The notes beneath the pieces are model-generated. The model was not told where the DNA came from, did not search any database, and worked only from the letters and a program-made list of their open reading frames with translations. The position numbers and the translations under genes were made by a program. A DNA stretch of 24,000 nt, from positions 593,903-617,902 of the forward strand of contig JBAZXH010000001.1 in assembly GCA_041659945.1 (NCBI GenBank), written 5' to 3'. This document shows, piece by piece, positions 1-4,484 of this stretch; the stretch's first letter is position 1; each line of letters begins with the position of its first letter. The stretch comes from Candidatus Pacearchaeota archaeon. GTDB lineage: Archaea > Nanobdellota > Nanobdellia > Pacearchaeales > GW2011-AR1.

Positions 1-542
1 CAGAAAGTTTCCCATATTATTTATTTGATTTTAAAACAGAATATAGTAAAACAAAAGGAAGAAAAATTGGATTGTTTTGGGATAAAAGTGAAAAAGCAGT
101 TAAAGAATATTTAGATGGAAAAACTCAAAAAAATAACGAGGTTATATTTGATTCTAAATATGATAATATAAGAAAATTTCTTCTTAGATTAGGAAAAAGA
201 GTTCTTAATAAAAGAGTTCATCCCCATCTTTTGCGTCATGCGTCATGCACTTTTTATGCTTCTCGAATAAATAGACAGGAGCTTTGTATTCGTTATGGGT
301 GGTCTTTTATCTCACGAATGCCTGATGTCTATATTGATAGAGCGGGTTTAGACCAAAATAAAATAATGGAGTCTTTTAAATCTCAAGGAATGGAAAAATT
401 TAAAGAAGAAAATGATGATTTGAGAAAAAAATTGACTAGAGCTTATATGAAATTAACTACTCTTGAAACAAAGTTTAAACAGTTTAAAGAAGATTTTGAC
501 TCTTTTGTTAGTTCTAAAGCTGATTGTACTGTAAGTAAGTAG
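1..542 (+). CDS. Tyrosine recombinase/integrase, C-terminal catalytic part (5' end lies outside the window)
   Basis: The frame of ORF 72..542 stays open back to nt 3. Box II motif HPHLLRHASCTFYASR is followed by YGWS and a catalytic Tyr context MPDVYIDR (Tyr codon 330-332). A ~65-aa Lys/Glu-rich tail follows. Confidence 0.8.
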   Translation, partial: ESFPYYLFDFKTEYSKTKGRKIGLFWDKSEKAVKEYLDGKTQKNNEVIFDSKYDNIRKFLLRLGKRVLNKRVHPHLLRHASCTFYASRINRQELCIRYGWSFISRMPDVYIDRAGLDQNKIMESFKSQGMEKFKEENDDLRKKLTRAYMKLTTLETKFKQFKEDFDSFVSSKADCTVSK

Positions 543-563
543 TTATCTTAAATCACGGAAAAG

Positions 564-571
564 TTTATAAA
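564..571 (+). promoter_or_regulatory. BRE/TATA promoter (GGAAAAG-TTTATAAA) of the replicon operon
   Basis: TTTATAAA starts 30 nt upstream of ATG 594 and is preceded by a purine-rich BRE-like stretch. The same geometry recurs at several other first genes in the window, implying a leaderless mRNA. Confidence 0.6.
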
Positions 572-593
572 CCCTTATAGTATAGTAATATAA

Positions 594-833
594 ATGGTAA
601 ACTACACTACTAAAAATAGACGAGGTGTTGAAAGGGCATCTATCGAGAAAGTTTGGAATATAATCAATCAAGAAGATTTGCCTCTTACTCCATCAAAGAT
701 AACTTTGAAATCAGGACTTCACTTTTATTCTGTTCAAAGTTGTCTTGACTTTCTAAAATACTTAAAAAAAATTGAAATAATTTATGGAGAAAGAATATGC
801 TTAATCAAAAAAATATCGGAGGGAGAAAAATGA
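594..833 (+). CDS. Small winged-helix-like protein (hypothetical)
   Basis: 79-aa ORF placed exactly at leaderless distance from the TATA box. The helix-turn-helix-wing pattern (LTPSKITLKSGLHFYSVQSCLDFLKYLKKIEII) is judged by eye only. Confidence 0.5.
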   Translation: MVNYTTKNRRGVERASIEKVWNIINQEDLPLTPSKITLKSGLHFYSVQSCLDFLKYLKKIEIIYGERICLIKKISEGEK

Positions 834-961
834 ATGCACCAGAAACTCAATTAGTTAATGGATTCAATCAAGAAAAGTTGGTTCTTTTTTATTTTAAAAG
901 ACAACTTGAAGAGATTGAGAAGTTATTTAATGAAAAATTAGAAGTAATGGAGAATAAATAA
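830..961 (+). CDS. 43-aa helical protein (hypothetical; not in the supplied ORF track)
   Basis: ATG at 830 overlaps the upstream stop (ATGA). GGAGGG at 818-823 lies 6 nt upstream. The ORF ends 2 nt before the next gene start (964) and translates to MNAPETQLVNGFNQEKLVLFYFKRQLEEIEKLFNEKLEVMENK. Confidence 0.4.
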   Translation: MNAPETQLVNGFNQEKLVLFYFKRQLEEIEKLFNEKLEVMENK

Positions 962-2836: not shown

Positions 2837-2838
2837 AA

Positions 2839-3591
2839 ATGAAAGAAACAATAATTTATGTTAGAACTTCGACTGAAGAGCAAAACCCTCAAAATCAATT
2901 GAAGGATTGCCAAGAACTTACAAAGAGATTGGGGTTTGAAGATTACGAAGTTTTACCTGAGAAAAAATCTGCGTTTAAAGACAATATAGAAAGAGAGATT
3001 TTTAATTCAATTAGAGAAGCAATAACTAAGGGAGAAGTGAAAAATTTGATTGTGTGGGATTTGGATAGAATATACAGACACAGAATTAGGCTATTAGATT
3101 TTCTCACTTTTTGCAATGTCTATAAAGTTAAAGTTTATTCATTTAGGCAAGAGTTTCTTAATGTCTTTGATAATCTAAAATTGCCTCAAGGTTTTGAGTT
3201 TCTTACTGAGATGTATAGAAATAATTTTTTGCAGTTCTTGGGATGGATTGCTGAAGAGGAAAGTGAGAAGAAATCTCAAAGGGTTAAGATTGCTGTTAGG
3301 AGGGGAGAGGGAGTAACAAAGTCATATAAAGGGAATAAGTGGGGGAGGAGAAGTTTGCAAAATACTCGTCTTATCGAACAGATTCTTAGCCTTAATTCAC
3401 AGGGAAGAACAATTAGACAAATAGCAGAACAAGTTTATTATTATGATGAGAACAGGAATAAAAAATTAGTTTCAAAATCATTTGTCCATAAATTATTAGC
3501 TCAAAATAGAGGGACAAATCTTCGTAATTATGAGTGTCCTAAAACTGAACAATTAAAGGACAGGAGACAAAATGAGTCTGATGAAAAATAA
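2839..3591 (+). CDS. Serine recombinase (resolvase/invertase family) with C-terminal HTH
   Basis: N-terminal IIYVRTSTEEQ (YxRxSTxxQ with catalytic Ser), VKNLIVWDLDRIYR, and C-terminal HTH GRTIRQIAEQV. Confidence 0.85.
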   Translation: MKETIIYVRTSTEEQNPQNQLKDCQELTKRLGFEDYEVLPEKKSAFKDNIEREIFNSIREAITKGEVKNLIVWDLDRIYRHRIRLLDFLTFCNVYKVKVYSFRQEFLNVFDNLKLPQGFEFLTEMYRNNFLQFLGWIAEEESEKKSQRVKIAVRRGEGVTKSYKGNKWGRRSLQNTRLIEQILSLNSQGRTIRQIAEQVYYYDENRNKKLVSKSFVHKLLAQNRGTNLRNYECPKTEQLKDRRQNESDEK

Positions 3592-3973
3592 AAAGGGTTT
3601 GAATAAAATGGGACATGTTTGGTTTGGGTTAATAATCGGTCTATTGGGGTTTTATATGCTAAAAGACTTTATGTCAATCTCAACTTTATTCTTATGTTTT
3701 CATCTACCTTTTTATTTAATAGGTTCTGCTTATTTATTAGATACTATAGAAAGTCCCAAATTTGGAGGTCGTTGGCATAGGGGTATTTTTCATAGTAAAA
3801 TTGCCTTTGTTGTAATTCTACTTGCTGTTCCAATACTGATTAAATTTTATCTGGATTACCCAAAGAAGTTTTTTCTTGATATTCCTTTTAACTATTTTTC
3901 AATTGGGATAGCTATTTTACTTGGAATTTGTAGTCATATTTTTGGAGATTCACTAACTGATAAATTAAGATGA
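3572..3973 (+). CDS. Polytopic membrane protein, possibly YdjM/DUF457-like membrane-bound metal-dependent hydrolase
   Basis: Four or so hydrophobic segments, an N-proximal His (MGHVWFG) and C-terminal SHIFGDSLTD resembling the YdjM HxxxD motif. An alternative start at 3608 (MGHVW) is possible. Confidence 0.4.
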   Translation: MSLMKNKKGLNKMGHVWFGLIIGLLGFYMLKDFMSISTLFLCFHLPFYLIGSAYLLDTIESPKFGGRWHRGIFHSKIAFVVILLAVPILIKFYLDYPKKFFLDIPFNYFSIGIAILLGICSHIFGDSLTDKLR

Positions 3974-4188
3974 AAAAACAATTAAAAAAATTTCTTGAGC
4001 TGAAGATTGTTACAGATGGTAAAGGAATGTATGTAGTCAAGTATAAAAAAGGTCAAAAAGAGTTTTTTGAAGAACTGGCAAAAATGGCAGACACTACTTT
4101 AGACAGTATTATCCAAGAAAGGATAGAGCAGGCAACTGGAGTAAAAACTATACCTGCAATATTAACTGTAAGAAAAACATCAAAATGA
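3970..4188 (+). CDS. Hypothetical 72-aa protein
   Basis: ATGA overlap with both neighbours and a Lys-rich soluble sequence. No recognisable motif. Confidence 0.45.
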   Translation: MKKQLKKFLELKIVTDGKGMYVVKYKKGQKEFFEELAKMADTTLDSIIQERIEQATGVKTIPAILTVRKTSK

Positions 4189-4484
4189 CAAAACAATTAA
4201 AATTAAACTTTGGTCAAAAATTAGAACTTTTTAGGCAGAAACATCAAGTAGCATTTTATATTTTACTAATTATTATTGGGTTTTTATCTTGGGGTCAAAT
4301 GTTTCAAATTTTTGGAGATTTTGAACCATTTCAAATTAATTTACTTAACCTTGTTAGAGGATTATTTTTTGCTGTTTTTTACTTCACACTTGTCTATTTG
4401 TTTTCTGAGACTTGGTTTGAATACCAAAAAATAAGGAGCAAAAACATTTCAAATGATAGTCTTTTGAAACTCATGAATTATTAA
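4185..4484 (+). CDS. Hypothetical membrane protein (2 TM)
   Basis: ATGA overlap with the upstream gene. Two hydrophobic segments (VAFYILLIIIGFLSWGQMF; LFFAVFYFTLVYLF). Confidence 0.5.
   Translation: MTKQLKLNFGQKLELFRQKHQVAFYILLIIIGFLSWGQMFQIFGDFEPFQINLLNLVRGLFFAVFYFTLVYLFSETWFEYQKIRSKNISNDSLLKLMNY

Follow-up and report, generated by a model that had tools for sequence, protein, structure and literature searches.

What kind of genetic unit is the train of closely packed genes that opens a 24,000-nucleotide stretch of the Candidatus Pacearchaeota assembly GCA_041659945.1 (contig JBAZXH010000001.1, positions 593,903 to 617,902; hereafter the window, whose coordinates are used unless a contig or locus is named), and how might such a unit integrate and replicate? 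An initial annotation had read positions 1–4484 as an integrated replicon carrying both a tyrosine and a serine recombinase. We conclude with very high confidence that these genes belong to a 12.8-kb integrative, plasmid-like (cryptic integrated) element of a DPANN-type archaeon, and that the tyrosine integrase is its integrating enzyme. The host genome measures 1.04 Mb and is 87% complete, and both sequencing runs containing this DNA are groundwater metagenomes.

The integration target defines the limits of the element. An intact tRNA-Glu(TTC) gene was called on the minus strand at 11839–11913, and its last 14 nt, which form the tRNA-proximal attachment (att) core (11840–11853, minus strand), recur exactly 944 nt left of the window (C1:592959–592972), 358 nt upstream of the integrase start codon; the element is therefore 12,783 bp long. 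This GC-rich repeat has exactly two copies genome-wide, identical and 12,783 bp apart, against a chance expectation of about 4e-5, and no internal copies were found at up to three mismatches. It was recovered by a genome-wide search with tRNA 3′ ends; a repeat search limited to 1–4484 and the left flank found no att. The direct repeats that the initial annotation had suggested looking for thus flank the element, but 1–4484 is the first ~40% of a unit of about 18 genes that ends at 11853. Its GC content is 29.5% versus 31.8%, among the lowest 0.3% of equal-sized windows, and the genes flanking it were recognised from sequence as TBP-, L15e-, eIF2-gamma- and S6e-like, which points to a small archaeon as host. 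Read on the minus strand, the distal att copy (L001:13056–13075) forms a hairpin rich in GC with a T run behind it, and was scored terminator-like. Rfam gave nothing credible at the left end of the element or at 4485–4629, folding z-scores were non-significant, and long-intron tRNA calls from relaxed ARAGORN settings were dismissed as noise.

Empty sites were identified in five genomes of the same genus (G306, G315, G120, G310 and G303), judged by gene synteny and not by base-level identity. In all five, tRNA-Glu adjoins the syntenic eIF2-gamma/S6e/UppP block, with neither an integrase nor a duplicate of the tRNA end, and G306 also retains the right-hand L15e and ligase genes. G306 has an element of its own, with integrase, helicase and serine recombinase, beside tRNA-Asp (L074, C2 near 310886–314595), for which no att copy was found within the fetched flank. 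The integrated-replicon reading, which the initial annotation would have abandoned had both flanking repeats and empty sites been missing, or had the recombinase motifs failed profile searches, is thus upheld by att repeats and same-genus empty sites, by two recombinases that pass profile cut-offs, by a primase and MCM-like helicase module, and by apparently circular relatives.

All nine open reading frames (ORFs) in 1–4484 point in the same direction, the first being cut by the window edge; ten or eleven had been counted before. They are joined by 2-nt gaps and by two ATGA overlaps, or three should ORF3 begin at 830, as previously described, and additionally by 11- and 20-nt overlaps, but no TAATG overlap was found. 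The cut ORF (1–542, plus strand) is the 3′ part of an intact 375-aa tyrosine integrase gene that begins 586 nt outside the left edge of the window (L001:13415). The full-length protein matches Pfam Phage_integrase over the cut-off (2.4e-11) and retains every catalytic residue (R180, H271-x-x-R274, W296 and Y306), in agreement with the first identification. Because att lies outside the gene and the ORF stays intact after integration, the enzyme belongs to the class II (pNOB8-type) archaeal integrases as defined previously (PMC8371274, PMC2926602); att does not split the gene as in class I (SSV-type). A third related tyrosine integrase is encoded elsewhere in this genome (C1:353999–355166, L012:6000–7166; 31% identity), with no helicase and no tRNA called nearby.

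Downstream of the integrase, a BRE/TATA-like archaeal promoter (556–571, plus strand) lies 22 nt before the ORF at 594 and is a candidate for driving the replication operon. Its TATA box (564–571) follows the integrase stop (542) and can therefore serve the other eight genes and not the integrase, so that the single promoter proposed earlier for the whole train holds for those eight alone. A 33-nt stretch upstream of the integrase (L001:13191–13223) is 76% identical to window 559–591, the promoter region of ORF 594, and may represent a shared promoter or operator. A sigma-70 promoter scan, based on a model unsuited to archaea, scored the same as shuffles and was discarded. The first gene behind the TATA box (594–833, plus strand) encodes a 79-aa winged-helix protein resembling IclR/MarR-type winged helix-turn-helix (wHTH) domains in Atlas structures (template modelling (TM) score 0.74–0.79); a homologue precedes a different replication operon (L220), and the protein is probably the operon regulator. 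It is followed by an ORF of 43–54 aa (797–961, plus strand) with no family match in profile scans.

The replication module comes next and begins with a minimal catalytic core of an archaeo-eukaryotic primase (AEP)-type primase-polymerase (964–1461, plus strand; motifs D78-x-E80, H110 and D134). The 165-aa ORF has 205 homologues of similar length with invariant motifs I–III, the named ones belonging to Candidatus Pacearchaeota, and its structural model (predicted local distance difference test score 94) matches the folds of CAPP, LigD-Pol and RepB′. The AEP fold bears out the minimal PrimPol of the initial annotation; the model comprises the catalytic core alone and lacks both PriCT and a Zn accessory domain. 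The AEP and the neighbouring helicase are fused as one protein of 560–600 aa in at least four relatives after removal of redundancy, which supports the earlier description of a split primase/NTPase module. The minimal PrimPol or the serine recombinase was also seen together with D5_N/DUF5906-type helicases (L055:8363–10480, L209 and L220:4882–6570), which shows that modules are swapped between replicons.

The P-loop protein with a wHTH noted in the initial annotation is an MCM-fold AAA+ helicase or initiator of 461 aa with a C-terminal wHTH (1451–2836, plus strand). It was assigned to Pfam PF27228 (MTBMA_p00010_2nd) from a precomputed Pfam match and Atlas structures (TM 0.63–0.72). The family has invariant G81-K82, E131-D132, R188 and R256/R261, and the model shows an AAA+ core followed by the wHTH, at roughly residues 310–390; its top 50 Foldseek matches are all MCM proteins (best E-value 1e-9). 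The features of MCM-clade AAA+ proteins are present, namely the AAA+ fold, Walker A, arginine finger, sensor 2 and C-terminal wHTH. The protein departs from canonical cellular MCM in having no N-terminal Zn/OB domain, the AAA+ core starting at about residue 20, and in an identity of 10–14%. A PDB sequence search gave a weak MCM match only, and tblastn against PLSDB plasmids gave none. In its Atlas neighbours the same domain is joined to Toprim or Prim-Pol primases, a fusion common among members of the family. The name of the Pfam family derives from MTBMA_p00010, which we take to be a locus tag of the small, non-integrating Methanothermobacter marburgensis plasmid pME2001/pMTBMA4. Among the genomes searched, whose assemblies are incomplete, the helicase family was present in 2 of 20 of the same genus and 7 of 200 of the family, a patchiness expected of a mobile element. 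Some contigs of larger size and virus-like character, rich in small ORFs and membrane proteins, also contain it (L141, L142 and L017).

Where would such an initiator act? At 2645–2760, inside the 3′ end of the helicase gene, about six 9-bp repeats are followed by a perfect 14-bp palindrome at 2700–2713 and then by inverted 9-bp repeats. The disordered helicase tail encoded here reads as three-residue repeats in most homologues, and lag-9 autocorrelation is 0.51 in helicase tails versus 0.28 in the gene body. Periodicity of 9 bp exceeded z = 3 in 30 of 42 homologue tails and in none of 42 gene-body controls; inverted repeats were found in 26 of 42 tails versus 1 of 42 controls. The repeat unit changes in sequence from one element to the next, and at certain loci the array is placed behind the stop codon, both of which argue that the constraint acts on DNA. 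The array in this element scored at the borderline (periodicity z 3.0, inverted-repeat p 0.16), and the case for an origin therefore rests on the family. Helicases of SaPI and SCCmec elements bind iterons directly downstream of their own genes through a C-terminal domain (PMC7581432). Judging from these comparisons, the repeat array is probably the replication origin.

Immediately behind the helicase lies a complete small serine recombinase (2839–3591, plus strand), as the initial annotation had stated. The 250-aa protein matches Pfam Resolvase over the cut-off (6e-21) and has the layout of resolvases and invertases: an N-terminal catalytic domain with the serine nucleophile (S11), a C-terminal helix-turn-helix (HTH) and a length within ~200–250 aa. 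Among PDB profiles it matches the TP901-1 catalytic domain and Sin/Bin3 best. It is not an IS607 TnpA (23 bits against a cut-off of 110, with no adjacent TnpB) nor a large Ccr-type enzyme (41 bits against a cut-off of 700). Its subfamily has at least 485 members and also accompanies other replicons. In every one of the 12 loci that carry a serine recombinase, its gene is downstream of that for the helicase, co-oriented in 11, and the family's enzymes fall into several distant clades, albeit with weakly supported deep branches, which suggests repeated capture.

A sister element in the same genome helps to separate the roles of the two recombinases. It occupies tRNA-Asp (8,737 bp; C1:317268–326077, L011:3269–12078; 12-bp att) and has att repeats, an integrase and a helicase 64% identical to that studied here; it carries neither a PrimPol nor a serine recombinase, so integration at a tRNA does not need the serine enzyme. 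For the latter, multimer resolution seems to us the likeliest of the candidate roles, by a modest lead. An appreciable though smaller probability attaches to its serving phase variation as a DNA invertase, or to its being a passenger with no function, in an otherwise unchanged element. The layout is common to resolvases and invertases, with Mpi and Gin-type invertase among the profile matches; members of the subfamily are found next to restriction-modification genes and on virus-like contigs as well; and some two thirds of helicase loci with sufficient flank do without a serine recombinase. No convincing inverted-repeat pair surrounds any segment, however, no strand-switch joints passed the filters in the contig analysis, and its repeated, independent acquisition downstream of the replication genes speaks for selection. 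No clear repeats that could be cognate res or inversion sites were found within the element.

Related elements extend these observations. Relatives of roughly 5–11 kb occupy the 3′ ends of the genes for tRNA-Asp, Tyr, Arg, Ser, Gln and Thr, and nine further elements have tRNA 3′ repeats of 11–17 bp; complete members measure ~4–11 kb, some with little beyond integrase and helicase. In reconstructed attP sites, symmetric inverted arms flank the core in six of nine tested (p<0.05), those of this element being weak (7 bp, p=0.04). Among 26 helicase loci with at least 3 kb downstream, this one counted, 17 have an integrase, nine a serine recombinase and five both. Five contigs show terminal assembler overlaps (L062, L064, L224, L133 and L209), suggesting that they are circles: L062 (7.4 kb), L064 (5.9 kb) and L224 (11.2 kb) carry both recombinases, in L064 and L224 with the subfamily of the window enzyme, and L133 has an integrase, a helicase and a tRNA-Tyr-like attP. 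Separately, at least five further tRNA 3′-end duplications of 11–30+ bp mark other small insertions in this genome (on C1, tRNA-Ala at 2766 with copies at 936 and 1051, tRNA-Asn at 565853 with a copy at 563223, tRNA-Arg at 675586 with a copy at 674603, tRNA-Ser at 737570 with a copy at 739494, and tRNA-Thr at 376567 with a copy at 377241).

The remainder of the element consists of accessory genes. A YdjM-like membrane protein, a putative metal-dependent hydrolase (3572–3973, plus strand), was retained from the initial annotation with an E-value of 2e-6, just under the Pfam cut-off, and is followed by two small ORFs encoding a 72-aa soluble and a 99-aa membrane protein (3970–4484, plus strand). 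Two genes of 385 and 441 aa lie on the minus strand (4630–7112; GC 33% versus 29% in the core); these adjacent genes appear ATP-grasp/PEP-synthase-like, and the second alone has a weak match to PPDK_N, the ATP-grasp N-terminus. The segment 7240–11830 (GC 27%) encodes a 78-aa wHTH, a 74-aa Cys-rich protein, two membrane or secreted proteins, two unknown ORFs and a 227-aa wHTH. Except for the small wHTH, none of these genes, from the YdjM-like gene to 11830, has a homologue in the related loci examined. The Cys-rich ORF beside the divergent wHTH (window 7580–7804) resembles by eye L046:11645–11875, a gene near a serine recombinase in another genome's Cdc6-like island. PADLOC found no defence system and generic HTH matches only. 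Outside the element, window 16555–21048 encodes a 1,497-aa secreted repeat protein in which PEGA-, dockerin- and LamG-like parts are apparent by eye.

One explanation for these observations taken together, which we regard as likely in its entirety, is as follows. The tyrosine integrase would recombine attP with the 3′ end of the tRNA in such a way that the tRNA is restored, and could excise the element as a circle. The helicase wHTH would then bind the 9-bp repeats at the end of its own gene and open the DNA, the AEP core would prime or assist priming, and the host replisome would copy the circle. The serine recombinase would be an accessory, repeatedly acquired multimer resolvase acting in the circular phase, with no part in tRNA integration, and the remaining genes would be exchangeable cargo. 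No transfer or capsid genes were recognised that would give a route between cells.

Several points weigh against this account. No excised or empty form of this copy was seen; contigs from two samples span the distal att at flat depth and with no joints, from which it follows that essentially all of the population carries the element in integrated form, although assembled contigs drop rare variants and cannot show rare circles. Both runs may be source samples; runs X3 and X4 were without the element. Low-side joints in the contig analysis were treated as belonging to other organisms. The Walker B motif of the helicase is atypical, with E-D replacing D-E, and de novo priming is uncertain because the AEP has no PriCT. 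No res site was found near serine recombinase genes, a search of the flanks of 15 subfamily genes gave no motif common to them, and the terminal overlaps of related contigs may be assembly artefacts or tandem arrays.

Such points might lead one to postulate that this copy is a relic that no longer moves, or else a composite island, in which an integrase-replication core was joined by separately accreted cargo. The integrated form alone was seen, GC differs between blocks (29, 33 and 27%), and the cargo is not common to related elements; the core ORFs are nevertheless all intact with full motifs, and the identical att copies have no internal counterparts, so we consider a relic or composite improbable. 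We view with similar doubt a satellite resembling phage-inducible chromosomal islands (PICIs) or tycheposons and spread via an unknown DPANN virus or vesicles: size, tRNA target, integrase with primase and helicase, and the absence of transfer genes all fit, and a few family members lie on IMG/VR contigs, but no helper is known and those few matches may be misclassified plasmids. Pfam, PHROG and Atlas scans, which remote folds may escape, recognised no capsid, terminase or other virion or packaging gene, nor a relaxase or VirB4-like gene. A bolder and still less probable version would make the family satellites of as yet unknown Pacearchaeota-type archaeal viruses, self-replicating tRNA-integrated circles with the origin in the helicase coding tail that have repeatedly recruited a serine resolvase for monomeric packaging. 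The absence of PHROG structural matches, relaxase and VirB4-like genes bears equally on a provirus or integrative conjugative element whose structural or transfer genes escaped recognition. The presence of several uncharacterised ORFs for membrane or secreted proteins and the occurrence of the helicase family in the virus-like contigs L141 and L142 would favour it; the small size and sparse content of complete relatives and the lack of conservation of the membrane genes between elements make it very improbable.

How, then, does the integrative plasmid-like element compare with known systems? It fits the definition of the cryptic integrated elements described in Thaumarchaeota (PMC6563490), with a class II integrase (PMC8371274). 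Those elements are likewise under 20 kb, with short att sites (8–26 bp) at tRNA 3′ ends, an intact tyrosine integrase, replication genes of mobile genetic element type (primpol, Cch-like AAA+ helicase) and no virion or conjugation genes; one of them, CalSub-E1, has a split primpol/helicase module (PMC6563490). The element described here differs in its DPANN-type host, in a PF27228 MCM-fold helicase in place of a superfamily 3 helicase, in lacking PriCT, in the origin-like array within the helicase gene and in its accessory serine recombinase. The plasmid pT26-2 of Thermococcus encodes both a tyrosine integrase and a pfam00239 serine recombinase, as do integrated relatives (PMC2926602). Its family, in Thermococcales and Methanococcales (PMC2926602, PMC6972569), shares the presence of both recombinase types on one tRNA-integrating archaeal element and, in some members, an MCM-like Rep beside the integrase; it is set apart by size and integrase class, pT26-2 being larger, at 32 predicted proteins, and having a conserved set of core genes of its own, with an SSV-type integrase that in Thermococcales is split, whereas the integrase here is intact.

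Bacterial elements offer further parallels. SCCmec and SaPI modules share the order of primase, MCM-like initiator helicase with C-terminal DNA-binding domain, iteron origin and serine recombinase (PMC7581432, PMC6972569); in SCC, however, integration falls to the large serine recombinase Ccr and the origin lies between genes, whereas here the serine enzyme is small, the tyrosine integrase integrates and the repeats are translated. The tycheposons of Prochlorococcus (10.1101/2020.12.28.424599) share a tRNA-targeting tyrosine integrase, a primase/helicase module, a small serine recombinase among the hallmarks, variable cargo and similar size; they differ in their bacterial hosts and own integrase clade, and vesicle or virion carriage has been shown for them.

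The initial annotation had considered the combination of two recombinases with a split replication module to match no named archaeal family. Given pT26-2 (PMC2926602) and CalSub-E1 (PMC6563490), and the recurrence of the layout in the element's own family, neither the pairing nor the split module is new; the most useful new details are the exact boundaries, the family-wide origin-like array in the helicase gene and the circular relatives with both recombinases. A literature search of incomplete coverage found no description of this Pacearchaeota element family, which is apparently widespread and undescribed in a DPANN-type host. Archaeal small serine recombinases, according to a 2021 review, have never been fully investigated (PMC8371274). 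DPANN mobile elements are poorly catalogued, and this one provides exact att sites, a compact primase-helicase-origin module and an archaeal subfamily of small serine recombinases; all three are open to in vitro testing without culture of the host.

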